Shown here: in pieces, positions 1 to 24,287 of the stretch
Numbering within the stretch: position 1 is the first letter of the stretch
Layout: every line of letters starts with the position of its first letter
Assembly: GCA_965205265.1 (NCBI GenBank)
Contig: CBDBGH010000003.1
Span: 5,376,001-5,440,000, forward strand
Direction: 5' to 3'
Length of the DNA stretch: 64,000 bases
DNA from: Alphaproteobacteria bacterium
Lineage (GTDB): Bacteria > Pseudomonadota > Alphaproteobacteria > Bin95
Translations under genes and position numbers: made by a program
The notes under the pieces: generated by a model
What the model was told of the DNA's origin: nothing
The model's database searches: none
Seen by the model: only the letters and a program-made list of their open reading frames with translations

Positions 1-882
1 CTCGACCATGGGCACGGCCCACTTCCAGCGCGTCGCCAGTTCGTCGGCCGCCGCCCCGAGCTTCGCCATGGCGAGGGTTTCCAGCAGCGCCGGGTCCTCG
101 AACCAGACGCCGTCCTCGCCGTCCTCGGCGAACAGGTCGCGCATGACCGTGCCGCCGGTGGCCTCGTAGGCCTCCGCCCCGACGAAGCGGGCGATGGCCG
201 CCGCCCCCGGCACCCGTTCCTCGGTCAAGATGCGTTTCACCTGCCAGGCAGACGGGCGGTAGCCCTGGGCCGAGACCTGCGCCCAGACCGCCAGCTGGCG
301 CGCCCGGTCGGCGGTGACGGCGAAGGCTTGCAGCGTCGCCAGGTCGATCTCGCCGGCCCGGTAGGCGTCGAGCAGTTCCGGCGCGGCGTTGCCGAGGCGC
401 AGGCGCTGCTCGACGATGCGCTCCGACGCGCCGAAGCGCGCGGCGATGGCGGCGACCGACCGGCCGGATGCGGCCAGTTCGGCGAAGGCCGTGACCTGGT
501 CGGCCGGGTGCATGGGGATGCGGATGACGTTCTCGGCGAGCGAGACCTCGCCGGGCGCGTCAGTGTCGGTTCTGACCTGGCAGGGCACGGGATGACCGGC
601 ATCCAGCGCGCCGTCCGCGGCCAGCGCCTGCATCGCCCTGAGGCGGCGGCCGCCGGCGACCACGGCAAAGCGTTCGGTTCCCTCGTCGTCGGGCTCGTCC
701 GGCCGGACGATGAGGTTCTCCAGCAGGCCGAAGGCGGCGATCGAGGCCGCGAGCGCGGCATCGGCTTGCCCATCGGGCGGGGTCCTGCGGACGTTCTCGG
801 GCGCAAGGCCGAGCCGGGAGAGCGGAATCTCCCGGATGATCGGCGTGTCGCCGGGGGCGCCGGGCGTGGCGGTGCGGTTCAT
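1..882 (-). CDS. ParB/RepB/Spo0J-family protein of ICE/plasmid type (runs off the left window edge)
   Basis: Not in the ORF track. My translation from ATG 882 (AGGAG RBS upstream) is open to base 1: MNRTATP...IPLSRLGLAPENVRR...LAASIAAFGLLENLIV...FAVVAGGRRLRA...SLAENVIRIPMHPADQ...IAARFG...VEQRLRL. These are ParB N-terminal motifs followed by an HTH. Confidence 0.9.
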   Translation of the reverse strand, partial: MNRTATPGAPGDTPIIREIPLSRLGLAPENVRRTPPDGQADAALAASIAAFGLLENLIVRPDEPDDEGTERFAVVAGGRRLRAMQALAADGALDAGHPVPCQVRTDTDAPGEVSLAENVIRIPMHPADQVTAFAELAASGRSVAAIAARFGASERIVEQRLRLGNAAPELLDAYRAGEIDLATLQAFAVTADRARQLAVWAQVSAQGYRPSAWQVKRILTEERVPGAAAIARFVGAEAYEATGGTVMRDLFAEDGEDGVWFEDPALLETLAMAKLGAAADELATRWKWAVPMVE

Positions 883-1062
883 GCGAAACTCCTGGATGGT
901 GTATGGAAAGGACGAAAGCGGCGTCGGGGACCGGACCCCGCCGGCCCGGCCGCGTCGCCCCGGCCGCCGCCCGGCTCCGCCTCTCGGCGGCGGGACCGGC
1001 GAAAGACGGCGCCGGACAACGGCGCGGGCAGCGCCCCGGACGAACGGGATCGGGGCTGAAAC

Positions 1063-2313
1063 TCAGGCGATGGCGAGATGTTCGCCCCAGGGCGGCGGGC
1101 TCCGGAAGGGTCCGGACCCGGACTGCCAGTCGCACCACAGAACCGGAAAGGGAGGTTCCGCCTCGGGGTAGCGGTCGCACGCCATGTCGGTGAAGTAGAG
1201 GCAGACCGCGGGTTGCACGCCGTGCGCCTCCAGCCAGGCGAAGCCGGGCCGGAAGTCGGTGCCGCCCCGTCCCCTGACGACGATCTCCTCGGGGAGATCG
1301 TCCGGGGCATGGTCGGCGGCGTCGCGCACCGCGGTGTCGACCTGGAGCACGATGACGCGCGCGGGATCGGTCTCCATCGCAGCCTCGCGCACCTCCGACC
1401 AGAAGGCGGCCAGGGTCGCCGTGTCGACCGAGCCCGAAGTGTCGACGATGACGGCGATGGCGTCCATGCCCTCGGAGCGAAGCGAGGGCAGGTAGAGCCC
1501 GGAGTCGATGAAGCGCCGGTTGGGGACGCTCCAGGAATAGTCGCTCTTCGCCGCCCCGGTCATGAAGCGGCGCAGCAGCGCGCGCCAGTCGAGCGCGGCG
1601 GCATGGGCGCCGCGCACGGTCTCCTCGACGGCGCCGGGCATCCGGCCTTCGGCCTTCGCGAGGCTGGCGGCCTGGTGCATGGCCTCGTCCCACGCCTGCT
1701 CCTCGGCGGCGAGAGCGCCCGGCGCATCCATGACCTCGCCGGTGCCGGCGGGATCGCAGCTCGGCGGCCCGGCGCCATCCTGTCCGGGTTCGTCCCGGCC
1801 GGACGGATCGCCGGCGTTACCGCCATCGCTGCCGTCCGGGGAGCCGGACGCGCGGTTTCCGTTGCCCGCACCGTCCGGGCCGGGCGGCGCGGCGTCATCG
1901 GCGTCGGGCTCCGGCAGGCGGTCATAGGCCTGCTCGACGCTGATCCCGTCCCAGGCCTCGGCGTCCGGCGGCAGGACGAACCCGGCGTCCTTCAGCAGCC
2001 CGTGGGTGACCAGCTGCGAGGCGTGCTGCCAGCGTTCCGGGTCGCGCCCGCCGCGCCGCGTGTGGTGCTTGAGGGCGCAGGCGAGCACCACCCGGGCGAT
2101 CGCGGTCTCGATCAGGTGGGCGTCGGTCTCCGCGATCCAGGCCGGGGAATAGCGGATCTCGCGCCCGTCGCTCGCCAGGGTCTCGCGGCCGGCATCGGCC
2201 CGCACCGGCAGGCGGAGCGCGAGTGCGCCGAAGAAGGGCTGCCGGCGCAGCAGCGCCGTGACGCAGCGGCTCACCCGCTCGGCCGACTCGCCGCGCGGCC
2301 GGGCCGCCATCAC
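1063..2313 (-). CDS. DUF2201-type protein: N-terminal metallopeptidase-like domain (degenerate), low-complexity linker, C-terminal vWA domain
   Basis: PFFGALALRL..TLASDG..RY, HHTRRGGRDP, YSWSVPNRRF...LYLPSL, MIDAS motif VDTSGS, and GRGGTDFRPGF...YFTD. Confidence 0.85.
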   Translation of the reverse strand: MMAARPRGESAERVSRCVTALLRRQPFFGALALRLPVRADAGRETLASDGREIRYSPAWIAETDAHLIETAIARVVLACALKHHTRRGGRDPERWQHASQLVTHGLLKDAGFVLPPDAEAWDGISVEQAYDRLPEPDADDAAPPGPDGAGNGNRASGSPDGSDGGNAGDPSGRDEPGQDGAGPPSCDPAGTGEVMDAPGALAAEEQAWDEAMHQAASLAKAEGRMPGAVEETVRGAHAAALDWRALLRRFMTGAAKSDYSWSVPNRRFIDSGLYLPSLRSEGMDAIAVIVDTSGSVDTATLAAFWSEVREAAMETDPARVIVLQVDTAVRDAADHAPDDLPEEIVVRGRGGTDFRPGFAWLEAHGVQPAVCLYFTDMACDRYPEAEPPFPVLWCDWQSGSGPFRSPPPWGEHLAIA

Positions 2314-3209
2314 GCCGCCTCCCGCACCGGCTCGGCCTGCGTCCCGAAATACCCCGCGAACGCCTCCGCCAGCGCGTCGGCCTCGCGCTTGACCTGCGCG
2401 CGCGCCATCGGGTCGAAGCTCTTCGACGGCCTGAGTGCGTCCGGCTCGACGCTGGCGATCTTCTCCTTCACCTGCCCGCAGAGACGCGCAAGTTCGTCGT
2501 CGCCGAAGATGTTGAGCCGCGGCACCACGTCCACCAGATCGCGGATGTTGCCGATCATCGAATCGCGGAACACCAGCGGCTTGCCCTCATCGTCTTCCCG
2601 GAGGCGTTCGGAGACCCGCTCCACCGCTTCGCCCAGGCGGCGGTAGAGGTCGCCCACCGCGTCGTGGAGGCGCTCCTCGATCTGGCTCTCGATGTCGCGC
2701 TTCACCCGCTCGGTGTCGTCGGAGGCGAGCTTGGCCATGAAGTGGTCGGCGTCCGGCACCGGGACGATGCGCCAGCGCAGGCCGAACCTCTCCCGCAGGT
2801 CCTCCTTCGCGGGATAGTCCGCGATGCGGAACAGCCTGCCGAGTTCCAGCCGGGCCCGGTCGATGTTGTCCTCGTAGTCGTCGATGAAGCGGGCGCGTTC
2901 GCGCACCAGGCGCTCGCGCAGGCCCTCCATCAGTCCGGTGTAGCGCTCGTAGTTGGCGACGGTGAGCAGGCGGCTCCCCTGGTCGTCCCAGGGCAGGGTG
3001 TTGGCGTAGTGGGCGCCGCGCGCCGCGCTGACGGTCGCGTTCAGCGCGGCGAAGGCGGCCTTCGGCAGCAGGCACTTGTTGTAGCGCCCGGCGGCGGCGC
3101 TGGCCTCGTGATGGACCGCGACATGGGTCGAGGCCTGGCGGTCGTGGAGCCGGCCCGACCAGGCGGCGATGCGCAGGGACACCAGCATGGCGTCGTGGGT
3201 GAGATTCAT
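2310..3209 (-). CDS. DUF3150-like mobile-element protein
   Basis: AMLVSLRIAAWSG, AGRYNKCLL, HYANTLPWDDQGSRLL, F..ADYP, FRDSMIGNI..L..VVPRLNI.GD..L. It overlaps the downstream gene by 4 nt and has an AGGAG RBS. Confidence 0.65.
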   Translation of the reverse strand: MNLTHDAMLVSLRIAAWSGRLHDRQASTHVAVHHEASAAAGRYNKCLLPKAAFAALNATVSAARGAHYANTLPWDDQGSRLLTVANYERYTGLMEGLRERLVRERARFIDDYEDNIDRARLELGRLFRIADYPAKEDLRERFGLRWRIVPVPDADHFMAKLASDDTERVKRDIESQIEERLHDAVGDLYRRLGEAVERVSERLREDDEGKPLVFRDSMIGNIRDLVDVVPRLNIFGDDELARLCGQVKEKIASVEPDALRPSKSFDPMARAQVKREADALAEAFAGYFGTQAEPVREAA

Positions 3210-3389
3210 GGCGGCAACTCCTGTGTGAGGGCTATCGCAGGGTCCACACCGGCACGCGCAGGGCGGCGGCGGGCCTGCGTCTTGCCGTTTCGCGGTCGGG
3301 AGCGCGCACGGCGTATGCGCGCGAGGGCGCGTCTCCCGCGGGATGGTGGAGAATCCTCCAGACCGCCGGTGCGGCCTTCGGGTCCTTCG

Positions 3390-4415
3390 TCATGGCGTGC
3401 GCGCCGCCGCCCAGCGGATGAAAGCGGGCGTGCGCTGGAGGTCCGGGTCGCGGCGGACGCAGGAGCCGACCAGGAACTCGCCGACCTCGCGCCGCAGCCG
3501 TCCGGCATAGGTGACGATGGCGTCGAGCGTGATGTCGTCGGCCATGCGGTAGAGCGCGCCGCAGAGCGCGATCAGGGCGCTGGCGTTCTCCGGCACCGGG
3601 GCGCCCGCGGGATCGTCGAGCACCGCCTTCGGATGAGGCAGTTCCCGCCACACCTTGAGGAAGGCCGAGAACTCCACCGCCGCCGCCTCGCCCACCGTGC
3701 CCCGGAACAGGGCGCGCTCGACGCCGGCATCGAGGCCGGCGCGGCGGTTGACGATGCCGGAGACCATCGCCCAGGTGCGGGGGCAGCAGAACGCCTTCTC
3801 CTTCGCCTGCGGATCGAAGCTGTGCAGCAGGTCCGGGCGCATGCGGATGTAGAACAGCACCTCCGGGGCGATACCGTGGGCCGCGCCCCAGGCGAGCCAG
3901 TCGTCGGCGTCGACCGCGATCTCCAGATGGACGAAGCGCGAAGCGAGCGGCGTCGGCATGCGGTGGACCACGCCCCGGTCGCCCTCGCGGTTGCCGCAGG
4001 CGATCAGCGAGGCGCCCTCGGGCAGTTCGTACTCCCCGACCCGGCGGTCGAGCACCAGCTGGTAGAGGGCGGCCTGCACCAGCGGCACGGCCGAGGGCAA
4101 TTCTTCCAGGTTGATGAGCCAGCGGCCGGGATCGTCCGTCGGCGGCAGGAAGGCCGGCGGCGCCCAGCGGGTGCGGCCGGACCCGTCGCGCCAGGGAATG
4201 CCGCGCAGGTCCACGGGATCGAGCAACAGTGCGCGGATGTCGACATAGGCGCGTCCGGCCTCGGCCGCCACCTGCCGCGCGATGGCGCTCTTGGCCGCCC
4301 CGGGCGGGCCCCAGACGATGCAGGGCTGGCGCGCCTCGACCAGCAGCGCCAGCGTCGCGGCAAGCTCGCTCGGGCGCAGCGTGTAGTCGGCGGAAATCGT
4401 CCCAGATTCGGTCAT
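3390..4415 (-). CDS. MoxR/CbbQ-like AAA+ ATPase (AAA_5 type)
   Basis: Likely start MTESGT at 4415 after GGAGG. Motifs: WGPPGAAKS (Walker A variant), LLDPVDLRGIP, LINLEELPSA (Walker B variant), ACGNR, PLASRF, PRTW. Confidence 0.88.
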   Translation of the reverse strand: MTESGTISADYTLRPSELAATLALLVEARQPCIVWGPPGAAKSAIARQVAAEAGRAYVDIRALLLDPVDLRGIPWRDGSGRTRWAPPAFLPPTDDPGRWLINLEELPSAVPLVQAALYQLVLDRRVGEYELPEGASLIACGNREGDRGVVHRMPTPLASRFVHLEIAVDADDWLAWGAAHGIAPEVLFYIRMRPDLLHSFDPQAKEKAFCCPRTWAMVSGIVNRRAGLDAGVERALFRGTVGEAAAVEFSAFLKVWRELPHPKAVLDDPAGAPVPENASALIALCGALYRMADDITLDAIVTYAGRLRREVGEFLVGSCVRRDPDLQRTPAFIRWAAARTP

Positions 4416-4568
4416 CGGCAGCCTCCGGATGGCGGGAAGACGGCGAAGGCCGGGCACCCTCCGGCCGCCCGACCTTCGACCGGACGGCAGCGCCGCTTCA
4501 CTCATCGTGTTTGGTGACACGGGACGGGCGTCGGCAGCCGGTGGGCGGCGGGGCGCGGACCGCCGGGC

Positions 4569-5369
4569 TCAGGCGCGGTCCGGGCCGGCCGGGCCGCCAT
4601 GCTTGGCGGCGACCGGGGAAATGCCGATCAACTTGGGCAGGGACACGCCGGACGGCGAAAGCGTGTGGCGGATGCGGCGCTCGATCGGGGCAGACCGGCG
4701 ATAGAGGTTCGGACGGAGTTTGGCTGCCCGGCGCAGGTCTTCGGGTGAGGAGAAGATGCAGAAGGAGCAGCTGCACCGCCCCGGGTGGTTGTAGATCCAG
4801 TGGGGCTTCTGGCCGGCGGCGCGGATGACCCGGACGCGTCGGCGGTCGTGAGGTCGACGATCGGCAGCCAGTCGAATGCTCGTTGCGACGCCAAGGAACG
4901 CGCCTCCCGCGCGCGGCACCCTCGTCGCGGCGGAGGCCGAGGCAGTTGACAAGCCGGCGGCAAGAGCGGGGATCGACCTTCAGATAACGGCGCAGCTCGC
5001 GTCCGATCGGCCCGCGCTTGTGACCAGCGGTGCACCATCTCTGGCGGACCCCGGAGAACATGCCGCGCCACTCGACCCGGCTGAGCCGCGACCCGCGACC
5101 CGCGACTTGCCGGATGCGGCGGGCGCGAGGATCAACGGCACGCCCCTGGGAAGCGTCGCCTCGACATGCTCGACCGTGCCGGGCCAGTCGACCTCGCCGA
5201 GCGGGGCGTGAACCGCGACCAGCCGATCGCACGGGACCCGCCGCGACAGCAGGATCGTCATGGCCTGCGAATCCTTGCCGCTCGAGGTATTGACGGCGAT
5301 GAGCGCGCCGGCGCGGATCATGTCCCTGCACCGCGGCGGTACGGGAACATCGGCCATGCGGCTGGACAT
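4569..5369 (-). pseudogene. Phosphoadenosine phosphosulfate (PAPS) reductase-family protein, frameshifted
   Basis: Motifs are spread across three frames: VNTSSGKDSQAM (PP-loop), RWCTAGHKRGPI, LGLRRDE, WLPI, HWIY, RCSCSFCIFS. Confidence 0.8.
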
Positions 5370-5890
5370 GAATCGGCCTCCCGAACGGTGGCGTCGAGGA
5401 CCGTTCCGCGGCCCCGGCTTCGCCCGGAGGATGCCGCCCACTGCCTTCCGCCGCCGCGCGTCCGACCGGCGGAGCCGCCGGGGCGTGGGTGCCGTACGCG
5501 ACAGGCGTCATTTCATGGTCGCTGGGGAATCGGATTCGGAGGCGCGCATTCCTAAAGCGCACCGAAGCGCTCGCGATTGCGGGGGAAGGAGTTAGGGAAG
5601 GCGTCGAAGTTCACGGCGGATGGGTGTAGTGTCCGTATCGCAGGAACGGCACCGACGGCTGACCCGACGAAGGAGACGAAGATTTTGGGCGGACAAAACC
5701 AGATACAAGGCACCGCCGAGTGAAGAGCGTCACTCCAAGCTTGCACCCTAGGATATCTACATTGAAACTAGACCAGTCGGCAGTGGCAGGTCAATTTATC
5801 GAACGAATTTACGGAACAAAACACTAGCGACCCTGATTCTCCCCAACATGGTCGGACCGCAGGGGCACATGATGCCATTCGCGCGCCACC

Positions 5891-6630
5891 TCACACATCT
5901 ATGTCATGGGATAATATGGCATCCAGTATTCTTTTCATCGCCGGAGGCTGAAAACCATCCCTCACCATTTCACTCACAATAATGTTTCGCAAAGTTTCGT
6001 AGCGCACGTTTCCGACTCGCCCTGCACAAAATCTTTTGAGCACGTCCCGCCCGCGAAATAGTTTTTTCCAGTTGTTGGAGCTAACACTCCTCAACAATTT
6101 GTTCTCTTCCGCCCGCACATCACCTTCTATGCGCTCCGGCGTTGCTTCCTCGGCAACTGTTTTTTTGGATAACATTTACCTTTTCTTTAGCTCGCCTCGC
6201 TAGTTCTTCTCCTACATTATTTGTTAATTGTGTAGTATCAATATGTCCAATATGCCTTATGTCCCTGCTTATTCTTCCCGCTACTCTTTCGATGGCAAAT
6301 CCCCGCGCCAGGTCCTTTCAAGTGTTCTTTAACTCTGTTCGAACCAATGCCTCTATATCCTTTTCAGGTTCCATTTCCAGTTCGAGGGACCGTAATGCCT
6401 CCGCAATGTATTTTTCTTCCAGCAGATAGTTTTCGATATGATACCTATCCCACTTTAATACTTGATTCGGTATCTGCGCACCATCCTCTTTGCTTTCATC
6501 CGCGTCCTCATCCGTTATTGCCCAAACTCGCTGTTCCCCATTCTCCTTTGCCGCGAGCTCATTCAATATCTCACGCAACTCCTTTACGCTCCGTCGAGAA
6601 CCGCCGCCAACTAAGGTTGCTTCCGTTTCC
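5891..6630 (-). pseudogene. 5'-truncated TOPRIM-domain fragment of an OLD/DUF4435-like ATP-dependent nuclease
   Basis: AT-rich segment reading LVGGGSRRSV...VWAITDEDAD...WDRYHIENYLL. It has an in-frame TGA at 6318-6320 and a frameshift in the T-run near 6160-6167, and continues to ...RGRDVLKRF... Confidence 0.6.
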
Positions 6631-7227
6631 GGCGCGGAGCTCGTGAAGCTTCAGGCGGCGGCTGCGGCGCGCAAGACGGCGCTGGCGACGATGGCTCGCG
6701 AGATGGATCAGAAGAAGGCGCTGATGGACGCGCTCGCCGAGGTCGACACGTCCGACCTGTCGGACGCGGACAAGCTCGCCGCGGCCAAGGCGGCCATCGC
6801 GGCTCTCAAGGAGGCGCTGGACGATGCGGGCGACGTGAGCGATGCCGACAAGGCGACGTATCGGACGCAACTGGCCAGTGCCCAAACAGCGGTGGACCGG
6901 AAAGAGCAGATGAACGCGCTTTCGGCTGCTTCCGGAAAGCTCGACATGGCTCTTGCGGCGTTTTCGTATAGCGCGACAATCTGGGTGAGAGCCGCGCGTC
7001 AATCAGGATGAGATTCCCCGGCGGCATCGGCGAGTTGATGATTGTCGCGCGGGGCGCGGATTGCAAGCGGTTTCGGATTTTGATTGTCGCGGCGCGACAA
7101 ACAAGGTTTTCGGAGAGCGTTTTGATTGTCGCGGGGGGGCCGTCGGGTCGGAGAAGAGACGGCCCGCGGAGGCGATTCCCGCGGGCCGTGAGTGTTGTGG
7201 CCGCTGGGCCGATCTGGCGGCAGCGGT

Positions 7228-9575
<2,348 letters not shown>

Positions 9576-11519
9576 CTACTCGGAAAAACGTCACCGTTCG
9601 CCCAGCCGACCGACCCCGCCAGAAGGTCCAGGAAAAATTTTTTGAGGCGGCGGCCCGGAACTCCGGTCGGGCTACGCCCTCCCTCCGTTCCGGGCCGCCG
9701 CCTTCCCCCGTCTCATCCTGATTGTCGCCAGCGTCTCAAGCTGATTGTCGCGCCGCAGTTTTCGGGCGTGACGCCCACGAAGGAGCAGCTCGACGCCGCC
9801 ATGGCCGCCCTCAGGGACCTGAAAGCGGCGCTCACGGGCGCCGAGGATCTGACCGACGACGAAAAGGACCGGTATCAGGCTCAGGCGGACCGTGCGGACG
9901 CTGACGACGGGCAGATCAAGACGGCGCAGGGCCATTACCAGGATCATGTTGTCGAGAACATCGAGGACATCCAGATCGCGGCGGCCATGAAGGCGGTCGA
10001 GATGGTCACTGACACCTCCGACGAAGACACCGTGACGGACGCGCAGGAGGCCATCGACGCCGCCAAGGAGGAGATCAGCGGCGCAAACATCACTGATGCT
10101 CAGAAGGCGACGCTCCTTGCGGCCATTAACATCCATCAGGGTGCGCTCGACCGGGCGAAGCTCTCCCGCACCAGGTACACGGAAAATCAGACCCGCATCG
10201 CCGGCGTCGTCAAGACGATCACGGACACCCAGATCAAGGCGGTCATGGACGCGATCGAGAAGATCACGAACACGTCCGACGACAGCACCGTGACGGACGC
10301 CCAGACCGCCATCGACGCGGCCAAGAAGGCGATCACGGACGCTCAGCTCCCTGACGCCAACAAGGAGACGCTTCGCAGGCAGCTTGACGACCAAGAGACG
10401 GCCTTTAACGAAGCCAAGATAGATCGTGAAGTCGCGATGATCACGGACGGCGAGATCAAGGCGGTCATGGAAGCGATCGGGATGATCACGGCCCTGTCCG
10501 AGGAGAGCACCGTGACCGACGTCGAAGCCGCCATCGCGGCGGCCAGGAAGGCGATCGCGGACGCACAGCTCCCTGACGTCAACAAGGAGGCGCTTCGCGC
10601 GAGGCTCGCCGCGCAGGAGACCGCCTTCGGCGCCGCCAAGATGGACCGCGCGGACGGGGCCAAGAGGGGCAAGGCGCTGCACGCGGCGATGGCCGGCCCT
10701 AAGGCGACGACGGCACCCAATAACGCGCTGACAAATCTCCAGTCCGCCCCGTACTACGTCACCGCACTCGTCGATTCCGGGAATGACCTCGGGACCGGCG
10801 AAGCCATCGGCAGACGGGGTGACTTCCGGATCGATCCCGCAGAGGGCGCGGGGGTGATCCCGGACGGCAATGCGCACAAGGCCGTGTTCTTCAGGCATGT
10901 CGGCAGTGAGCACATCGTCGATGAGGACGACGATCGGTTCGGTCAACCGCACTCCACGGCCCTCCCGAACGTCCCGAAGAAGGGGAAGTACCCGGAGAAC
11001 TTCGATACCGGTGAACATGGCAACGTGGGCACTGAGTGGTACGTCACGGACTTCACCAGGACCACCGGCTCCGGCGACGATCGGGTCACCGACAGGGTCC
11101 GGGTGTACAACGACAAGGTGGGAGGCCCGCTGACGGATACGAGGAGCGGGTACCTTCTCGAGAAGGATCTCGCGACGTACTTCGCGACCAGCGAGAAGCC
11201 GGTGAACGCGGGGGACCTCGACACGGACAAGCGCTCGCTGTCCCTGGGCACCGGGGTCTATAGCGCGACAATCTGGGTGAGAGCCGCGCGTCAATCAGGA
11301 TGAGATTCCCCGGCGGCATCGGCGAGTTGATGATTGTCGCGCGGGGCGCGGATTGCAAGCGGTTTCGGATTTTGATTGTCGCGGCGCGACAAACAAGGTT
11401 TTCGGAGAGCGTTTTGATTGTCGCGGGGGGGCCGTCGGGTCGGAGAAGAGACGGCCCGCGGAGGCGATTCCCGCGGGCCGTGAGTGTTGTGGCCGCTGGG
11501 CCGATCTGGCGGCAGCGGT

Positions 11520-13867
<2,348 letters not shown>

Positions 13868-14970
13868 CTACTCGGAAAAACGTCACCGTTCGCCCAGCCG
13901 ACCGACCCCGCCAGAAGGTCCAGGAAAAATTTTTTGAGGCGGCGGCCCGGAACTCCGGTCGGGCTACGCCCTCCCTCCGTTCCGGGCCGCCGCCTTCCCC
14001 CGTCTCATCCTGATTGTCGCCAGCGTCTCAAGCTGATTGTCGCGCCGCAGGGGTCGACCGGCACCTCGCCGCCCCGGTGTTCGACCGGTCGGGAGCCAAG
14101 ACCTACGATGTGTCTGACGGGAAGTCGGAGCAAGATCCGACCTTGATCAAGATTCCGGGCACCTACATGGGCGCGCCGGGCGACTACTACTGCCCCTCCG
14201 CCAGCACCTGCACGGTCGGGATCGGGGTCGGCGGCTGGTTCCTGAGCGAGGCCTGGTACTTCGTCTACGACGAGGGCGCGAAGGTGCAGGAGAGGGACTT
14301 CGACCATCTCTACTTCGGCTGGTGGATCAGAGAGGATGACGAAGGCGTGCCCGCGGCGGTCAGCGCCTTCTACCGGTCCGTCGGCGGGGACATCGAGCTC
14401 GCCACGGACGGCGGCAGCCTGAACGGCACGGCGCGCTTCGAGGGCCCCGCGGTCGGCGTGTACGCCATCCACGACCCGCTCAACGAGAAGGGCGACGGCG
14501 GCGACTTCACGGCGACGGCCAAGCTCCTGGCCAAGTTCGGGGCCACCAACCTGGTGCCCGAGGCGGGCATGACCGGCACGATCGACGGGTTCCGCCTGGA
14601 CAACGGGTCGGAGCCGAACTGGAGCGTGACGTTGCAGAAGGGCGCCTGGACCACCGGGGCCAGTCGTGAGATCGGGGCGCAGAAAGGCCACACCGACAAG
14701 ACGGCCAAGACGGTCTGGTCGATCAACGGCACCAAGGGGACGCCGGGCGGCAGCTGGGAGGCCTCGCTGTATGACGAGGCGGCCGGCACCATTGCGGATG
14801 GCGGCGACGGCAGCGACAGGCCGAGTTCGGTGCTCGGCAAGTTCTACGCCGAGCACGGCGACACCCATCGGATGGTGGGCGCCTTCGGCGCGAAGATCCA
14901 GCTGGAGGAGTAGCCGAACGGAGCCGGGCTCCCGTTGATGCGGGAGCCCGGCCCGGTTCCCGGTCGTGAC

Positions 14971-15185: not shown

Positions 15186-16460
15186 ATGAGACCTTTCCGG
15201 TTCCTTGTTCCCGTGCTGGCGGGGCTGTCGGTCCTGCTTGTTGCGGCGCCCGTCGCGCGCCCCGCCCTGGGCCAGGATGCGGCCGACATGCGCTTCCGGG
15301 CCGGGATGGAGGCGCTTGCCGCCGCCGATGCCGCGCCGGACCGGGAAGCCCGCGAGGGCAGGCTCGACGAGGCGGTCGCCGCCTTCCGGGCCATCCTGGT
15401 GGACCGCCCGGAGCTGGTGCGGGTGCGTCTCGAACTCGCCCGCGCCTTCTTCCTGAAGGAGGAGGACACGCTGGCGCGGCGGCATTTCGAGCAGGTGCTG
15501 GCGGGCGACGTGCCCCCGGCGGTCGCCGCCAACATCCGGCGCTTCCTCGACATCATGCGCGCGCGGCGGCGCTGGGAGGCGTGGTTCGGGGCGGCCATCG
15601 TCCCGGACAGCAACCTCAACGCCGCCTCGGGCGAGCGCACGGTCTTCCTCGACACCCCGTACGGCCGGCTGCCCTTCACCCTGGACGATCCCGCGAAGCC
15701 CGAATCCGGCTTCGGCGTCTCCTTCTGGGGCGGCGGCGAATACCAGCATCCGCTGACGGACCGCCTGCGCCTGCGCGCCGGGGCGGATGCCAGCGTCCGG
15801 GAATACAGGGGCGGGGAGTTCGACCGGCATTTCCTCGCCGCCCATGTCGGCCCGCGCTGGCTGATCGACGCCCGCACCGAAGCGAGCCTTCTGGCGACCG
15901 CGGACCGGCAATGGACCGCCGGCCGGCCCGAGACCGACAGCGTCGGCCTGCGCCTCGAAGGCGAGCATCTCCTGACGCCGCGCCTCGCGCTCTTCGCCCG
16001 CGCCGGCGCCGCCCGGCGCAACTGCCGCGGCTGCGACTGGCTCGACGGCCCGGTGGGCGACGTCTCGCTCGGCGCCAGCTGGGCCGCGCTGACCATCCTG
16101 CGCCTCGGCGGCAATGCCGGCTGGAGCTGGGCCCGCGCCAGGGCCGAACACTGGCGCAACAGCGGTCCGCGGGCGAGCCTCGGCGCCACGCTGGCGCTGC
16201 CGGCCGGCTTCACGCTCGGCCTGCGCGCCGCCCTGCAGCGCACCGAATACCAAGGCGGCGGCGCCGCCCACCGCACCATCGACCGCAAGTCGCGCCGGGA
16301 CGAGACGCGGACCCTCTCGGTCTCGGTCCACAACCGCGCCGTGACCGTGCTCGGCTTCAGCCCCCGCCTCTCCCTCATCCGCGAGGAGCGCAAGACCAAC
16401 GCCCAGGCCCTCGACTACCAGCGCAACCGCGCCGAACTCAGCTTCGTGCGCCAGTTCTGA
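15186..16460 (+). CDS. Surface lipoprotein assembly modifier (Slam/DUF560, type XI secretion outer-membrane protein)
   Basis: Signal peptide, TPR-like N-domain (LVRVRLELARAFF..ARRHFEQVL), PDSNLNAA motif, beta-strand-rich C-domain ending in ELSFVRQF. It lies directly downstream of TbpB-like cargo. Confidence 0.88.
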   Translation: MRPFRFLVPVLAGLSVLLVAAPVARPALGQDAADMRFRAGMEALAAADAAPDREAREGRLDEAVAAFRAILVDRPELVRVRLELARAFFLKEEDTLARRHFEQVLAGDVPPAVAANIRRFLDIMRARRRWEAWFGAAIVPDSNLNAASGERTVFLDTPYGRLPFTLDDPAKPESGFGVSFWGGGEYQHPLTDRLRLRAGADASVREYRGGEFDRHFLAAHVGPRWLIDARTEASLLATADRQWTAGRPETDSVGLRLEGEHLLTPRLALFARAGAARRNCRGCDWLDGPVGDVSLGASWAALTILRLGGNAGWSWARARAEHWRNSGPRASLGATLALPAGFTLGLRAALQRTEYQGGGAAHRTIDRKSRRDETRTLSVSVHNRAVTVLGFSPRLSLIREERKTNAQALDYQRNRAELSFVRQF

Positions 16461-17610: not shown

Positions 17611-18096
17611 ATGGATCTGTTATTTCGCCGCGAGCAGACATCGGGACGGTTCGCCCGCGTCACCTTCCGACTCTGGAGCAAGATTGAGCTGACCGAAGAG
17701 GAGACGGAGCTTGCGGACCGCTACCGATTCCATGACGCGATCCTCATTGTCACCGAGCAGGAACAGCTGTTGCGGCAGACGGTGAACGTCGGGATAACAG
17801 CGGGGTTAGTCGTCGGCGTCCTCTTCTACCTCTGGCTCGGCCTTCTCGCTGCCGGTGTCATGGCGCTCTTCGCCGGCGCGGGAACGGGCTACCTGTACTT
17901 CACGGAGAAGCGCGAGACCATCTACGTCAAGGACCTCCTGCACGGTCGGCACTTCAGCTGCCGGAGCATCGTTGACATCGCCGAAAAGGAACTACACCTG
18001 AAATCCATCGTCACCACCTTCCGGCAGGTCATGGAAGCCGCCAAGAACTGGGACGGCACCGAACAGATACCGATTGAGCCGACCGGAGACCGGTAG
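17611..18096 (+). CDS. Hypothetical membrane protein with two TM helices
   Basis: 161 aa with a central hydrophobic hairpin. Its stop abuts the next ATG. Confidence 0.75.
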   Translation: MDLLFRREQTSGRFARVTFRLWSKIELTEEETELADRYRFHDAILIVTEQEQLLRQTVNVGITAGLVVGVLFYLWLGLLAAGVMALFAGAGTGYLYFTEKRETIYVKDLLHGRHFSCRSIVDIAEKELHLKSIVTTFRQVMEAAKNWDGTEQIPIEPTGDR

Positions 18097-20220
18097 ATGC
18101 CGCTGCATCCCGGCCCCCGACTGCATGCCCTCGTGCATGGACTCTTCCGCGCAAGCGACAAGACGAAGGTCAAACGGGTCCACCGGAATGTGGAGGGACA
18201 CCTTCGTCGGCACGGGCTCTTGGACCGTAGTAGCCGGCATGCCTTCGAGGATGAGATTACCAATGACGTGCTCATCCTGCTCGGCCTTGACCCGGAGAAT
18301 CTTCACGTCCCGCACCTTGTCCGGCTGATCCGCCGGCTCCTGGTCTACGAGGAACTCTTCGAACTCCCGGAGATCGATTGGCAGGAGCGCCGGACCATTG
18401 CCACGTGGTGGCAGCTACGCGACACGCTCAGTGAACGGCTCCCGGCATCCAGGGACGCACCGGATGCCGGCTGGCTTGTCGCCCGAGTCGTTGCCGATGC
18501 CCTTGATCCCGTCATTGCCGCGACCGCCCTCTTCGGCGATCCTGATGAGGACGCGCTGACAGTCACCACGGACCTGGTGCATACCCTCGGTGACGCCGGC
18601 GCCGTCGCGGACCGGATCATCACCGCTTTTACCGATGAGGATGCGGACCGATTTAGTCTCTTCAGCCGGCTCATTGACCGGCTGGAGCGAAACACCGTCG
18701 CTGCCTCCGGCGGTGATCCGGCGAATCCGCAGGCATTCACCCGGCCGCTGAAGCTGCCGAGTGCCTCTGGGATACGCGACAACGCCCGGCTTTTGGAGAC
18801 CTACTTTGCCGGCACGCCGCTTCTTGATTTCTTTGACCGGGAGGCGGACGTTCCCCTGCCGACCGTGACCCGGTTCGAGCACCACCACATCGTCGCCGGT
18901 TCCGGTCACGGCAAGACCCAGACCCTACAATACCTTATCGGCAACGACTTGGACGCCGTTGCCCAAGGGAAGCGATCCGTCATTGTTATCGACAGCCAGG
19001 GCGATCTGATCCGTACCGTTTCCTCCCTTGCCGCGTTTGCTCCGGGCGGATCATTGCATGACCGGCTTGTCCTGATTGACCCGACCGATGTTGAGTACCC
19101 CGTCTCGTTGAATCTGTTCGATGTCGGGATCGACCGTATCTCGTCGTACGAAGCATTAGAGAAAGAACGGCTTACCAATTCTATTCTTGAACTTTACGAC
19201 TTTGTTTTGGGCTCATTACTTGAAGCGGAGATGACGCAGAAGCAGAGCGTTATCTTTCGCTACGTCACCCGATTGATGTTGCGGATACCGGATGCAACGA
19301 TACATACCCTCCGGGAATTGCTTGAACCCGACGGGGCCGAACGGTTCAAGGAACATATATCGTCTTTGACCGGTGTCTCCCGTGCATTTTTCAACACCGA
19401 GTTCTCATCCCGTGAGTTCGAGCAGACCAAACGACAGGTCGTCCGCAGACTCTGGGGCATCCTTGAAAACCGGACGTTCGAGCGTATGTTCTCACACCCC
19501 CGGTCAAAGCTTGACCTGTTCACCGAGATGAACGCCGGCAACGTCATTCTCATCAACACAGCGAAGGACTTACTGAAAGAACAGGGATCCGAGATATTCG
19601 GTCGGTTCTTCATCGCGCTCATCGCCCAGGCGGCACAGGAACGCGCAACGATACCGGAAGAAAACCGCATGCCCACCTTCGTCTACATTGACGAAGCGGC
19701 GGACTACTTTGATGAGAACATCGCCGTCATTCTCTCGCAGGCCCGTAAGTACAATGTGGGGATGGTACTGGCACATCAATATTTATCACAACTTGACGCA
19801 AAACTCCTTGATGCCTTCGCCGCCAACACCGCAATCAAGTTCGCCGGGGGAGTCTCCGCCAAAGATGCCCGCTCCCTTTCCTCCATGCTCTCCTGCGAAC
19901 CGTCGTTCATTGAAGCACAGGGGAAAGGAAGCTTTGCGGCGCACATACGAGGCAGAACCGCACGGGCGATACCCTTGCGGTTTCCGTTCGGGTTTCTGGA
20001 AGAGAGACCCCGTATGTCGGACGAAGACCGTGTGCGTGTGCGAGCCATGATGCGGAAGCGCTATGCCGTGCATTACTCAAAGATCGAGAGGACGGAACCG
20101 ACGGACGAACCGGAGCAACCACCGACACCCGAGCCACGAGGCAGACGAAGGAGACGACGATCTCCACGGAAGCCACCTGACTCCACGAATGACGGCACGG
20201 ACGCCTCGTTCGATCTATGA
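18097..20220 (+). CDS. VirD4/TraD/HerA-like P-loop ATPase (type IV coupling-protein-like)
   Basis: RFEHHHIVAGSGHGKT (Walker A), VIVIDSQGD, FVYIDEA (Walker B), SQARKYNVGMVLAHQYLSQL. Confidence 0.85.
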   Translation: MPLHPGPRLHALVHGLFRASDKTKVKRVHRNVEGHLRRHGLLDRSSRHAFEDEITNDVLILLGLDPENLHVPHLVRLIRRLLVYEELFELPEIDWQERRTIATWWQLRDTLSERLPASRDAPDAGWLVARVVADALDPVIAATALFGDPDEDALTVTTDLVHTLGDAGAVADRIITAFTDEDADRFSLFSRLIDRLERNTVAASGGDPANPQAFTRPLKLPSASGIRDNARLLETYFAGTPLLDFFDREADVPLPTVTRFEHHHIVAGSGHGKTQTLQYLIGNDLDAVAQGKRSVIVIDSQGDLIRTVSSLAAFAPGGSLHDRLVLIDPTDVEYPVSLNLFDVGIDRISSYEALEKERLTNSILELYDFVLGSLLEAEMTQKQSVIFRYVTRLMLRIPDATIHTLRELLEPDGAERFKEHISSLTGVSRAFFNTEFSSREFEQTKRQVVRRLWGILENRTFERMFSHPRSKLDLFTEMNAGNVILINTAKDLLKEQGSEIFGRFFIALIAQAAQERATIPEENRMPTFVYIDEAADYFDENIAVILSQARKYNVGMVLAHQYLSQLDAKLLDAFAANTAIKFAGGVSAKDARSLSSMLSCEPSFIEAQGKGSFAAHIRGRTARAIPLRFPFGFLEERPRMSDEDRVRVRAMMRKRYAVHYSKIERTEPTDEPEQPPTPEPRGRRRRRRSPRKPPDSTNDGTDASFDL

Positions 20221-21179
20221 CGGCGTACGACCGGATCGGGCGGCGCAAGCGGACAACGAGAACATCGACCGGCAAGCGCATCATTCTTCAGGAACGGGAC
20301 TTGTTGTGGTTCCGGACACTCAGGGAACACGGACCGTTGCCTTCGTCGTACCTTCTCTCCTTTTGCAAACGGACGCATGCGAGCGATACACGCTCCCTTG
20401 AACGGCTGACCGATCTGTTCAATGAAGAGGACACGAAACACGGCGGCGCCTACCTCTCCCGTCCCGTCCAGCAGTTCCACACCCTGGACAGCCGGTACAA
20501 CCAATTGGTGTACGATCTGACGCCGGCGGCGCACCGGGCACTGGCGGATGCCGGCGACACCGACAGTCCGTCTGTCCGGTCGGGACCGTGGCTGCATTCC
20601 TTCATGGTTGCCTGCATCACCGCCTCGGTTGCCCTTGCGGTCGCGGAGAGACCCGACCTCTCGTTCCTGAACCAGTCAAGATTGCTTGCGCGATCCGGCG
20701 CCGAACTCCGGTATCCGGTGCGGATCGCTGATCCAGCAGGAGGTGAGAGCAAACGGAAGGACCTCATCCCGGATGCCCTGTTCGGTCTTGCCTACCGGAG
20801 CGAAGAGGGTACCCGGTACCGCTGCTTTCTGGTGGAGGCAGACCGGTCAACCGAACCGGCAGTCTCCGGGAACTTCAACCGGAAGTCCTGGGAGCGCAGC
20901 TTCCGGCAGTACGAGGCGTACATCGGCAGCGGCCTCTACCGCGAGCACCTTGCCCTGAGGGCCCCGCTGCTTCTGCTTACCGTCGTCACCGACACCCGGC
21001 GGCTGATGCAGCTGCTGCACCTTGTCGAAGACCTTGACCTCTCCATTCGACCGCAAGTGCTCCTGCAGCCCTGGGGGGCGTTCAGCACCCCCTTCTCTCC
21101 GCCCACGCCGAACCCTGCGCTGCTTGGCGCTCCCTGGCTGCGTGCCGGGTTGCCCGCGTTCAGGATTGATGGGGTGTAG
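20217..21179 (+). CDS. Replication-relaxation (Replic_Relax) family protein
   Basis: N-terminal wHTH (LQERDL..FRTLREHGPL) and PD-(D/E)xK-like LIPDALFGL...FLVEADRSTEP. ATGA overlap with the upstream ATPase. Confidence 0.8.
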   Translation: MTAYDRIGRRKRTTRTSTGKRIILQERDLLWFRTLREHGPLPSSYLLSFCKRTHASDTRSLERLTDLFNEEDTKHGGAYLSRPVQQFHTLDSRYNQLVYDLTPAAHRALADAGDTDSPSVRSGPWLHSFMVACITASVALAVAERPDLSFLNQSRLLARSGAELRYPVRIADPAGGESKRKDLIPDALFGLAYRSEEGTRYRCFLVEADRSTEPAVSGNFNRKSWERSFRQYEAYIGSGLYREHLALRAPLLLLTVVTDTRRLMQLLHLVEDLDLSIRPQVLLQPWGAFSTPFSPPTPNPALLGAPWLRAGLPAFRIDGV

Positions 21180-21362
21180 CAGCGGGGTTGCCGGCGTGCG
21201 CTGGCGCATGCAGTCTGTACGCGCGGCGGTTCCGTGTATCTGGATAGGTAAGATGGGTCGCTCCCTGCACTGTAGAGCCGGGTCGCACCCGGTCGGCCAA
21301 TGAGCGGGGCCGTCGCACGTGTTCGGGAGATACTGGTATTCTCTGATTTCAGGAACATACCC

Positions 21363-21863
21363 ATGGAAGCAATTGTTCAGCACTCAGTAGATCGTGCCAC
21401 TGACGAAGCCATACGGCTCTGGTCGATGGCCAATGCTCAGTATCCCTCCACATGGGAGCCGGATATTCGTGTCCGGCTTGCACATATGATTATTGAGCGT
21501 GCGAGCATATTCGCGCTCAACGCCCGCCGTGCCATGGAGGGTTTATCTGACAAACGGCAATTCAAACTCAATCAATCGTGGTACGACTGGAAGCCGATAG
21601 CCAAGGGCGATATTGTGGAGGATTTTGTTGAGGCTTTGAATCGTATAATCCACGCGAGGGTGTTGAAGGTTGGTTATGAGAATGTTAGCAACAGCACCAT
21701 CTTGGGCGGTGCGTTAGTAATCCCCTGCCTGCAAGCCGAGACTGACAGACAAACAGTGGCGTTCATTGACATATTCTCACTTGCTCATTGTTTTCTGTAC
21801 CACGTGCTCCCGAAACTGTTTTCTCCACAGGCACACGCGCTCACGATTCTGCCTGTTCGATAA
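21363..21863 (+). CDS. Hypothetical protein, AT-richer than flanks, possibly HEPN-like
   Basis: Open frame of 166 aa from ATG 21363 (187 aa from 21300), containing ALNRIIHA. Confidence 0.6.
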   Translation: MEAIVQHSVDRATDEAIRLWSMANAQYPSTWEPDIRVRLAHMIIERASIFALNARRAMEGLSDKRQFKLNQSWYDWKPIAKGDIVEDFVEALNRIIHARVLKVGYENVSNSTILGGALVIPCLQAETDRQTVAFIDIFSLAHCFLYHVLPKLFSPQAHALTILPVR

Positions 21864-21887
21864 TTCAACATATATCTGGAACTGTAC

Positions 21888-22475
21888 TCACGAACCGGCG
21901 TCCACCCACAAATCCCCGAGACTGAACGCTACGGCATCAAACGGCGGAAGCGACACGGACGCGTTGCCGGTCAGGGTTTCAAGCAGCACCCAGCGGTCAT
22001 CGCTCAGCTGGAAGACTTCAAGCGTCCGGGCATCGGGATCAACGAACCAGAGGTGGCCGACGCCTTCTCTGGCATAGATGGTCCGTTTCTGCCCCTGGTC
22101 GAGCGCCCGAGTTGACGGGGAGAGCACCTCGCAGACCCAATCGGGTGCCAGGGAGAAGTAAGCGGTTCCCGGGAATACCGGCATCCGTTCCCTGCGCCAG
22201 CCGGCAAGATCGGGAACGACAATGTCGTCGCCAAGGTGCAGCTCGGGTTCATCGATGATCCACCAGCCGCCCGGTCCTCCCCGGCCGTAATCGAAGGGCG
22301 GCGCGATGCTTGCCCCGAGTCCGGAGCTCGCCCGCGCATGCCTCGGTGCCGGTCTGGGGCTCGTATGCAGGATGCCTTCAACGACCTCGGCGACCTTGTG
22401 CCGTGGCGCCCGGAGCACGTCCTCGTACGTTGCCCGTCTCGGTCGTGCTTTTGTCTGTACGCGCAGTGCTGTCAC
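21888..22475 (-). CDS. Uma2 (DUF820) family endonuclease
   Basis: ATYEDVL, GPGGWWIIDEPELHL, VPDLAGWRRERMP, APDWVCEVLSPST, YAREGV.HLWFVDP. GTG start after AGGGA. Confidence 0.92.
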   Translation of the reverse strand: MTALRVQTKARPRRATYEDVLRAPRHKVAEVVEGILHTSPRPAPRHARASSGLGASIAPPFDYGRGGPGGWWIIDEPELHLGDDIVVPDLAGWRRERMPVFPGTAYFSLAPDWVCEVLSPSTRALDQGQKRTIYAREGVGHLWFVDPDARTLEVFQLSDDRWVLLETLTGNASVSLPPFDAVAFSLGDLWVDAGS

Positions 22476-22692
22476 TCCCTTGTCTCTCACGGTTAGGTAT
22501 GCCAGCCTTATCGTGCAGTCAATCGCAGGTCTCCCGCTCTGTCGGGTCGCCTGCCGAATACAAGAGCCATGACCTGACAGCGGGGTCGCTCCCCGTTGTG
22601 CGGCGAATAGGTGGGGCATCTACGTACCTGTGGATTGACTGCAACGACCCGGCACCAGCCGGCGTGTGTCCGTTGCCTATGGAGCAGATCGC

Positions 22693-23661: not shown

Positions 23662-23949
23662 TGGGTACCGAAGCGAGGAGAACTCTCACCATGACCCGGT
23701 ACCGTTTTGGTACTCTTGTCCTTCTTCCGCTGCTTCTTAGTGCTTGTCTGAGCACAACGGAGGTGGGTAGCGGCGGGTCGGTCGTGCAAGGCGCGGCGGG
23801 CACCACCGCCTCGCGTGCAACCCGCACTACGTCGCAGCCGACCGGCAGCACAAGCACAGGCGAGGCGAAGCAGTTAGAGAAGTGCTCCGCTCCTATTGCC
23901 ACGGTCGCTCTGGCGGAAGATGAGGGGAACAAGCAAGCATATGCGGTTG

Positions 23950-24287
23950 TGCTTTCGCAGTTGCAGTTGCCACAGTCTCCGCTTCCGTTGATCCGACTGA
24001 TGTTCCAGCAGAGCAACTGCTTCCAGATTGTTGATCGCGGCAGAGGGCTTCAGGCAATCAGCACCGAGCAGCAACTGGCCAAGCAGGGCATGCTTCAGGC
24101 AGGGAGCAATGTGCAGGGAGGCTCGCTGGTCGCGGCTGACTACACCATCACCCCAAATGTCGTCTTCTCGGACCAGAATGCGGGGGGTATGGGGATGGCG
24201 GCGGGAATGCTCGGCGCCATTATCCCCGGTGCCGGGCTCCTGGGCGGCATCAATGTCAAAAGCAAGGAAGCCCAGGTGGTGCTGTTT
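23950..24287 (+). repeat. 338-bp direct repeat, copy 1 (IS1634 target duplication)
   Basis: Matches 26204-26541, from TGCTTTCGCAG to GTGCTGTTT. Confidence 0.95.

Follow-up and report, generated by a model that had tools for sequence, protein, structure and literature searches.

How can a peptidase that lacks its catalytic residues, encoded next to an ATPase with an altered Walker B motif, remain part of a conserved gene cassette, and what would the cassette then be for? The question is raised by a stretch of 64,000 nucleotides of an Alphaproteobacteria bacterium genome (assembly GCA_965205265.1, contig CBDBGH010000003.1, positions 5,376,001 to 5,440,000), which we call the window. Positions 1-4415 of the window carry, on the minus strand and all co-oriented, genes for an AAA ATPase, a DUF3150-like protein, a protein combining a DUF2201_N domain with a VWA domain, and a ParB-like protein; the first three are referred to as the trio. 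Below we show that the DUF2201 protein belongs to a large, old and conserved lineage without the HExxH zinc motif, which is under purifying selection and is not the product of decay in one strain. We then consider what an ATPase that is probably alive and a peptidase that is predicted to be dead may do together.

The DUF2201 protein and its former peptidase site

The DUF2201 protein matches both halves of its family: PF13203 (DUF2201_N) at 137.8 bits against a cut-off of 23.2, with residues 15-279 on positions 7-271 of the 271-position model, and PF09967 (DUF2201 VWA-like) at 78.6 bits against a cut-off of 26.4. It also matches phrog_1314 (1.6e-72). In three syntenic homologs (30-38% identity), the DUF2201 proteins read AHE(V/C)LH and (W/H)N.A.D.(A/R)(I/V)N, and the matching alignment columns of the window protein hold ARVVLA and WQHASQLVTH; in the second segment the Asn/Asp/Asn helix is replaced by Q96, Q100 and H104. 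The translation, read directly, holds no second HExxH and no HxxEH. Judged by these alignments, the window domain is a putative zincin-like peptidase without its His-Glu-His and Asn/Asp/Asn residues, and is predicted to be catalytically dead. A preliminary description of the locus, made from the DNA letters, had placed RVVLA at the HExxH position and WQHASQLVTH at the N..D segment, had read the DTSGS motif of the metal ion-dependent adhesion site (MIDAS) as intact, and had allowed for an intact metal site elsewhere in the protein. The alignment confirms the three readings, the DUF2201_N profile is matched well over its cut-off with the HExxH replaced, and no second HExxH or HxxEH is present.

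The AlphaFold2 (AF2) model of the protein has a predicted local distance difference test (pLDDT) score of 89, reaching 95-98 over residues 11-130 and low only in the linker between the two domains. Its C-terminal part has a VWA fold, with VIA-align Z-scores of 12.7 to both the CLCA1 VWA domain and the CD11b I-domain (root mean square deviation 2.6-2.7 over 131-133 residues against solved VWA/I-domains), 10.9 to the VWA domain of NorD in the NorQ-NorD complex and 10.6 to the midasin MIDAS domain. The structural matches listed for the whole model cover the VWA domain only. By their position in the fold, T352 and D376 would complete the MIDAS that starts with D291, S293 and S295.

A lineage without HExxH

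We analyzed the conservation of the altered site at three depths. First, in 20 close homologs (64-88% BLAST identity) the segments RVVLA and LKHHTRR are invariant, and one homolog has Arg instead of the Cys that separates the two segments. Second, 80 loci were collected from species-representative genomes, with DUF2201 proteins 53-77% identical to that of the window; all 80 have R.V.(A/S/T) at the HExxH place, and none has HExxH. Third, we classified 151 proteins, namely the query and the best 150 of 13,836 cluster representatives (HMMER, E<=0.001). HExxH together with the downstream Asp is present in 44 of these, and in 90 the Glu, the second His and the Asp are all gone, with the first His retained in 15 of the 90; four keep H...H without the Glu, another four have lost the motif and kept the Asp, and nine are fragments, counts that say nothing of the family as a whole because the representatives are biased towards relatives of the query. 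In a midpoint-rooted FastTree phylogeny built from 136 usable sequences, one clade (support 0.83) takes in 80 of the 84 fully degenerate representatives, and scattered independent motif losses occur within the HExxH clade as well.

Comparing alignment columns between 80 non-HExxH and 44 HExxH representatives shows what was given up and what was kept. In the HExxH set H74, E75, H78 and D100 are 100% conserved, and N96 and N104 98%. In the non-HExxH set position 74 is Arg in 66%, 78 is Ala in 82% and 96 is Gln in 91%, with 75, 100 and 104 variable. H83, R86, R87, R90 and W95 are conserved in both sets, and the MIDAS residues D291, S293, S295, T352 and D376 reach 85% conservation or more in each clade.

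Selection was estimated as the ratio of nonsynonymous to synonymous substitution rates (dN/dS), taking medians of pairwise Nei-Gojobori values over 75-86 full-length copies per gene for pairs with dS 0.05-1.5. The medians are 0.21 for the ATPase, 0.30 for the DUF3150-like gene and 0.32 for the DUF2201 gene; inside the last, the dead peptidase domain has the lowest value (0.19), followed by the VWA domain (0.32) and the linker (0.52). These values come from copies that are not independent, with several from one genome and a few loci included twice, and from synonymous rates that are difficult to estimate at such G+C content. The invariance of RVVLA in 20 of 20 close homologs, the lack of HExxH in 80 of 80 loci, the single clade holding 80 of 84 degenerate representatives and the ratio of 0.19 bear out the claim of the preliminary description that the peptidase site was lost across a clade and not by decay of one strain.

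A different alteration was seen in five distant AAA-DUF2201 pairs (L041-L045), whose HH(V/I)LH has the catalytic Glu replaced by His with both His residues still present; their Walker motifs are canonical. Judged by sequence, this is an independent change of the HExxH site.

The AAA+ ATPase

The ATPase matches phrog_1297, annotated as 'ATPase', at 1.5e-89. When a profile of 16 family members was compared with the PDB, the AAA modules of midasin came far in front (2.9e-33); NorQ followed at 8.2e-9, and classical AAA proteins (VCP, Cdc48) matched at 1e-8 to 1e-12 with the P-loop half only. By these profile relations it is a midasin/MoxR-like AAA+ protein. From AAA+ topology, N142 is likely to be sensor 1 and R160 the Arg finger.

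Two of its motifs deviate from the usual form, and they differ in how they are distributed. The ATPases of the three syntenic homologs have G.PG.GK(T/S) and (L/I/F)D(E/D)(L/V) aligned to the GPPGAAKS and NLEEL of the window. Among 120 close homologs in the matches listed (79-99% identity), G.PG.AKS is present in 119 and, by pattern match, an NLEEL-type motif in at least 112; the ACGNR Asn and the PLASRF Arg are retained. At the genome loci the Walker A is readable in 55, of which 48 have AK and 7 GK, a mixture within one clade which argues that the Ala can be swapped with Gly in this lineage. E. coli RavA, an active ATPase, has the Walker A sequence GPPGIAKS. The Walker B reads Glu-Glu in all 58 loci where it can be read. 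Its state follows that of the neighboring DUF2201 protein: all 14 ATPases beside HExxH or HHxxH neighbors have D(E/D), as does the ATPase of L038, whose neighbor gave no tblastn match, and the partners of RVV.A-type DUF2201 proteins have Glu at the first acidic place of the Walker B in all paired loci.

Taken together, the conservation of K42/S43, E104/E105, N142 and R160, the occurrence of AKS in RavA and the dN/dS of 0.21 suggest that the ATPase is probably alive. The preliminary description had regarded the ATPase as retuned, on the strength of AKS and LEE, and had asked whether both are conserved with RVVLA under purifying selection. This holds for LEE, which is clade-wide (58 of 58) and co-occurs with loss of HExxH in every locus that could be paired; AKS is an ordinary variant, shared with RavA, and is not fixed in the lineage given the GK in 7 of 55 readable members.

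The DUF3150-like middle protein

The protein encoded between the ATPase and the DUF2201 protein has no Pfam match, PF11348 (DUF3150) included, even at E<=10, and no match in NCBIfam, PHROG or PADLOC; the PF11348 model finds nothing in the whole genome at 1e-5. Its relation to DUF3150 appears at greater distance. A precomputed PF11348 match exists for 2 of the 120 close homologs listed for this protein. Plasmids and cyanophages have orthologs at 30-35% identity, placed between AAA and VWA genes and annotated as DUF3150 or hypothetical. Comparison of profiles with hhalign relates the N-terminal 115 columns to canonical DUF3150 (92.8%, E 4e-7). The AF2 model (pLDDT 84.5) shows a small alpha/beta N-terminal part, a long helical hairpin and a C-terminal helical bundle, and its top Foldseek match in BFVD is a phage 'DUF3150 domain-containing protein' (E 9.9e-17, full length, 300 columns). 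In the protein atlas it lies nearest to clusters of phage proteins; in one of these, 12% of the members carry PF11348. Against the PDB, Foldseek returned nothing clear (best E 0.08), and VIA-align gave at best Z 9.7, to generic helical bundles over residues 163-297 only, which is below the noise level for helical proteins. Scans of viral sequences with plasmid and phage DUF3150-like proteins found 0 and 1 locus, respectively. A predicted complex of the DUF2201 and DUF3150-like proteins scored 0.00, which speaks neither for nor against binding. On these profile and fold relations, the middle protein is best described as belonging to a diverged branch of DUF3150 found on mobile elements; the earlier label 'DUF3150-like' stands as a remote relation, and not as a Pfam match.

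Gene calls and genomic context

At the G+C content of this region, 72-74%, long open reading frames (ORFs) arise in every frame, and spurious ones are abundant on both strands. The three complete ORFs are marked out by a third-position G+C of 0.91-0.94, a Shine-Dalgarno-like GGAG lies 5-10 nt upstream of all four genes, and family matches and homologs support all four calls (Table 1). The 341-codon ATPase ORF starts at ATG, and most of the 120 close homologs listed have the same length; a longer GTG-started ORF to 4520 is probably not used. The DUF2201 protein has 416 residues from GTG, or 415 from the ATG one codon in, which is the form of the database copy P0001. In the string GTGATG the start of its gene overlaps the TGA stop of the DUF3150-like gene. 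The four intact, co-oriented ORFs with one overlapping pair described earlier are thus borne out, except that the ParB ORF is cut by the window edge. The intergenic spacers 883-1062 and 3210-3389 are both exactly 180 nt long. No Rfam match was obtained in window 1-7000 at E<=0.1, and a scan of window 1-6000 found one promoter-like site (5938-5911) and no terminator, including none in the 180-nt spacers.

Table 1. Coordinates of the cassette genes, their motifs and domains, and of other features near them (window positions unless a locus is named)
Feature	Coordinates	Strand	Basis or remark
AAA+ ATPase, midasin/MoxR (AAA_5-like) kind, 341 aa	3390..4415	-	phrog_1297, midasin profile match, homologs
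Walker A GPPGAAKS, residues 36-43; Ala41 where most P-loops have Gly	4287..4310	-	direct reading
Walker B LINLEEL, residues 100-106; Glu104 for the usual Asp, Glu105 kept	4098..4118	-	direct reading
Putative sensor-1 Asn (ACGNR) and conserved Arg (PLASRF)	3933..4001	-	N142 and R160 invariant in 16 diverse family members
DUF3150-like protein, 299 aa	2310..3209	-	remote profile and fold relation, syntenic orthologs
DUF2201_N (zincin-like, predicted inactive) + VWA/MIDAS protein	1063..2313	-	PF13203, PF09967, phrog_1314
N-terminal putative pseudo-peptidase domain, residues 1-135	1909..2313	-	former active site on helices 65-80 and 92-109 (AF2)
RVVLA, residues 74-78, at the HExxH place	2080..2094	-	alignment
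WQHASQLVTH, residues 95-104, at the WN.A.D..(I/V)N place	2002..2031	-	alignment
Gly/Asp/Pro-rich low-complexity linker, about residues 136-195	1729..1908	-	pLDDT <50 at 147-169; length varies among homologs
VWA domain with complete MIDAS (D291-T-S293-G-S295, T352, D376)	1066..1473	-	fold match, conservation
DTSGS MIDAS motif, residues 291-295	1429..1443	-	direct reading
ParB-like protein, N-terminal 294 aa of 757 aa, crosses window edge	1..882	-	phrog_7783
PAPS-reductase-like gene, truncated, 153 aa, upstream of trio	4980..5441	-	phrog_424, E 0.002
TrwB-like coupling protein	18097-20220		in 17611-24305 stretch
Replic_Relax protein	20217-21179		in 17611-24305 stretch
DDE transposase copies	window 24391-26046; L132 15890-17545; L133 12771-14426 and 15390-17045		

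The trio is a recurrent unit. The order AAA, DUF3150-like, DUF2201 is found in 60 of the 80 loci, most of the others being cut by contig ends or insertions; 54 of the 80 have a ParB homolog no more than 5 kb downstream, and 23 of the 52 with enough upstream sequence have a PAPS-reductase-like gene. The assemblies that carry the 80 loci are labeled as Alphaproteobacteria, Binatia, Delta- and Gammaproteobacteria, Gemmatimonadota and Acidobacteria. The same gene order occurs on a Rhodovastum plasmid, on a conjugative Cupriavidus plasmid, where a PRTRC cassette lies upstream, and, interrupted by small ORFs, in the cyanophage MinM2, in agreement with the earlier statement that such genes recur on phages and mobile elements. 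The DUF2201_N domain is present in 9 of 301 sampled genomes of the class, with up to 11 matches per genome, and 13 of 401 genomes match in a sample of the phylum.

The genome itself holds three full copies of the cassette, that of the window included, and one fragment; the others lie at G000:C3 3463161-3464429, 4303241-4304644 and 3540375-3540788. The DUF2201 proteins of the two further full copies are 88% and 61% identical to that of the window, and the fragment contains a TAA stop. The neighbors of the genome copies encode ParB, RadC/JAB, DUF6573, a 1609-aa Sno-like helicase, SSB, DUF7146-Toprim, DUF4326 and YAcAr; further out lie tyrosine integrases (upstream), ankyrin-repeat genes and many copies of insertion sequences (ISs). 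The whole ParB-like protein counts 757 aa (L011 16609-18882). It matches phrog_7783 at 7.7e-56, and stays below ParB_N (PF02195; 25.9 bits for the window part and 24.0 for the whole protein, cut-off 26.3), TIGR03734 (67.2 against 278.6) and PRK13832 (69.3 against 640); from these scores it is clearly ParB-like and would fall in neither named subfamily (PF02195, PRTRC TIGR03734). The truncated PAPS-reductase-like gene of the window has an intact paralog in genome copy 3 (L013:7270-8181; 303 aa, PF01507 at 4.5e-9).

Some copies elsewhere are damaged. The DUF2201 gene is split by an insertion of about 1.4 kb in L031 and broken into two frames in L027; L023 and L015 lack the ATPase and have a truncated middle gene; in L024 and L025 the ATPase or the DUF2201 gene is truncated; and in L034 the ATPase has an in-frame stop.

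Proposed function and alternatives

By analogy with NorQ/NorD, CbbQ/CbbO, RavA/ViaA and midasin, we propose that the three genes encode one machine of the mobile-element backbone, which would grip and remodel, or hold, a client protein and not cut it; we consider the chances of this proposal to be about even. The ATPase would form a ring with the VWA protein as its adaptor, and the MIDAS site would grip an acidic residue of the client. The dead peptidase cleft would hold the client without cutting it, so that the complex remodels, holds or releases its target. The Glu that replaces Asp in the Walker B probably slows or gates hydrolysis, and does not abolish it. The DUF3150-like protein may be a third subunit linking the complex to its target, or may itself be the client. 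Remodeling or holding a client without cutting is the most economical mechanism. Most speculative is the role of the target: the ParB-like, PAPS-reductase-like, RadC/JAB, SSB, Toprim and Sno-like helicase genes nearby hint at the establishment or maintenance of the element, with either a host protein or a nucleoprotein complex of the element as target.

Several observations weigh against this proposal. The ATPase stays below the Pfam cut-offs, with 14.3 bits for AAA_5 against 22, the profile against which the preliminary description had meant it to be aligned, and no AAA_3 match; the true MoxR of the same genome reaches 199.5 bits for AAA_3 and has the Walker A sequence GVPGLGKT. Because the Walker B Asp is replaced, the ATPase may bind ATP without hydrolyzing it. 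The pairing of NLEEL with loss of HExxH could be a single inherited event, and it covers the loci at 53-77% identity and not the more divergent non-HExxH representatives. The zincin-like identity of the N-terminal domain is suggested by the Pfam family name and the HExxH of relatives, and neither the DUF2201 nor the DUF3150-like protein has a sequence relative in the PDB. Furthermore, distant AAA-DUF2201 pairs (24-31% identity) are adjacent without a middle gene. Four canonical DUF3150 genes (L127-L130; 150-253 bits, four genomes) have no BLAST similarity to the middle protein and are not adjacent to AAA or DUF2201 genes; genome G659 carries its DUF3150 gene and its DUF2201 pair on separate contigs. 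As distant pairs lack the middle protein and canonical DUF3150 stands apart, the middle protein is apparently not obligatory for the pair. Finally, no type IV secretion system, relaxase or origin of transfer (oriT) of this element was found beside the window copy in about 140 kb, which leaves the earlier suggestion of a complex delivered early in transfer without support here.

Among the alternatives, the one that survives best, though we regard it as unlikely, is that the trio is an assembly chaperone for a structure of the element itself, such as a virion or a partition or transfer nucleoprotein complex, with a peptidase that became dispensable where no maturation cleavage takes place. For a phage pair of this kind, a role in virion assembly coupled to proteolytic processing was proposed by Iyer et al. 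2021 (PMC7824862), the frequent ParB-like gene after the trio (54 of 80 loci) is in keeping with a partition complex, and HExxH forms prevail among the phage and plasmid examples. However, the 140 kb examined around the element contain no virion genes, and constraint is stronger on the dead domain than elsewhere in the DUF2201 protein, which suggests that it is not merely dispensable.

Somewhat less probable is a cargo defense or conflict system that would protect the host or the element against phages or rival elements, in which the ATPase-VWA pair sets a threshold and the DUF3150-like protein or the pseudo-peptidase acts as sensor or effector. In conflict systems, the combination of a MoxR-vWA pair and a third gene is a known theme (Kaur et al. 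2020, PMC7159879); the 'ternary' systems described there have other third components. The ATPase matches the bpMoxR model weakly, at only 18.3 bits against a cut-off of 27, the trio is patchily distributed with several copies per genome, and it sits on mobile elements, on which defense cargo is frequent. On the other side, PADLOC-DB 2.0 has no match for the three trio proteins and gives only a sub-threshold one for the ParB-like protein (PD-Lambda-5_A, 13.2 bits), and no effector domain (nuclease, pore, NADase) is among the profile matches of the trio. Its fixed place among replication- and partition-type backbone genes (60 of 80 loci), and its presence beside primase genes in cyanophages of the lytic type, fit a function for the element itself.

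We think it improbable that the peptidase is still active as a variant protease through a rebuilt metal site, for example one combining the invariant His83/His84 with other residues. The conservation of H83, R86, R87 and R90 in both clades would agree with such a site, and in the close clade a conserved His66..Glu69 lies on the same helix. Yet all of H74, E75, H78, N96, D100 and N104 are replaced, several by variable residues, and the protein has no other HExxH or HxxEH; a compensating His66/Glu69 site was rejected, as neither position is conserved throughout the non-HExxH clade, where Asp (63%) and Arg (34%) are their most frequent residues. The weakest alternative, that the window genes are decaying remnants in this strain, for which the broken copies elsewhere (L031, L023, L024, L025) and the truncated PAPS-reductase-like gene next door might speak, is refuted by three intact genes 77-99% identical to their closest copies from other assemblies, by purifying selection, and by variant motifs that are invariant in homologs and lineage-wide (80 of 80 loci), with the ATPase motifs conserved as well.

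A bolder form of the non-cutting machine, which we offer tentatively and hold to be unlikely as a whole, is a 'split bacterial midasin'. An AAA ring would pull on a host or element protein through a MIDAS adaptor, while a zincin-derived cleft and the DUF3150-like partner hold it. One multi-phylum lineage would have switched from cutting to holding or dismantling and had its Walker B clock reset at the same time, and the machine would serve establishment or counter-defense.

What makes the cassette worth attention is that few MoxR-type ATPase/VWA pairs have a known client, though such pairs are common, and that this family is large (the 13,836 cluster representatives above) and is found on plasmids, islands and phages. 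Sister lineages differ in having a live or a dead peptidase and Asp or Glu in the Walker B, with the MIDAS constant; they form a natural experiment in which the roles of cleavage, gripping and ATP turnover can be separated. If the target is a host defense or DNA-processing protein, the cassette would represent a new class of mobile-element establishment function; if its function is that of a housekeeping chaperone, it would still be a clean case of a conserved pseudo-protease.

Other elements around the cassette

Beyond the cassette, two 100% identical IS21-type copies of 2,792 bp lie at 6967-9758 and 11259-14050 (IstA 499 aa, IstB 279 aa), each flanked by a short duplication specific to that copy (TTTCG-like and GGGTC). 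They enclose an ORF of 553 aa (9642-11303) without a Pfam match. Paralogs of Slam (surface lipoprotein assembly modifier) are encoded near IS copies, at window 15186-16460 and L131 2444-3823. The stretch 17611-24305 has a lower G+C content (0.58-0.63) and carries, besides the coupling protein and the Replic_Relax protein of Table 1, Uma2 nuclease-like and CsgG-like genes; it looks like a separate small mobilizable element, unrelated to the island of the trio. A 551-aa DDE transposase gene is present in at least four copies within about 140 kb, with identical Pfam scores. Upstream of the island, ankyrin-repeat proteins and a 1,497-aa fn3/PKD/Ig-domain protein are encoded at L133 17145-19837 and L132 1834-2523 and 9967-14460, adjoining two tyrosine integrases.

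Relation to known systems

The open literature was searched for earlier accounts, with subscription journals outside the search. It yielded no functional study of DUF3150, DUF2201 or PRTRC genes, no description of the trio and no HExxH-less lineage; the PRTRC literature, as far as its accessible portions go, contained nothing on function, and the main text of a paper on leading regions (PMC11541004) has no vWA, MoxR, AAA, metalloprotease or ArdC. The pair of ATPase and VWA/peptidase is already known from the literature covered, in which neither the trio nor the dead-peptidase lineage was found.

Among the closest described systems is a group 2.2 jumbo-phage pair (Iyer et al. 2021, PMC7824862), in which a MoxR protein and a vWA protein with an N-terminal metallopeptidase domain are viewed as chaperone and cochaperone. 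Like the window cassette, it places an AAA+ gene beside a gene for a metallopeptidase-VWA fusion on a mobile genome. Unlike that pair as described there, the window form lacks HExxH, has a Glu-Glu Walker B and a DUF3150-like gene in between, and is part of a genomic island that has no virion genes.

An AAA+ ATPase encoded next to a VWA/MIDAS protein is also the arrangement of NorQ/NorD, CbbQ/CbbO and RavA/ViaA, and RavA shares the GPPG.AKS P-loop with the window ATPase. However, the VWA partners in these systems are not known to have a zincin-like domain or to be accompanied by a DUF3150-like third gene, and the systems serve host enzymes. The best PDB relative of the ATPase family is midasin/Rea1, with its six AAA modules and C-terminal MIDAS domain, and one of its AAA modules aligns NIEH under the NLEE of the window. 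Midasin is a single giant eukaryotic protein that acts on pre-ribosomes, whereas the ATPase and the MIDAS of the window are separate small proteins of a bacterial mobile element.

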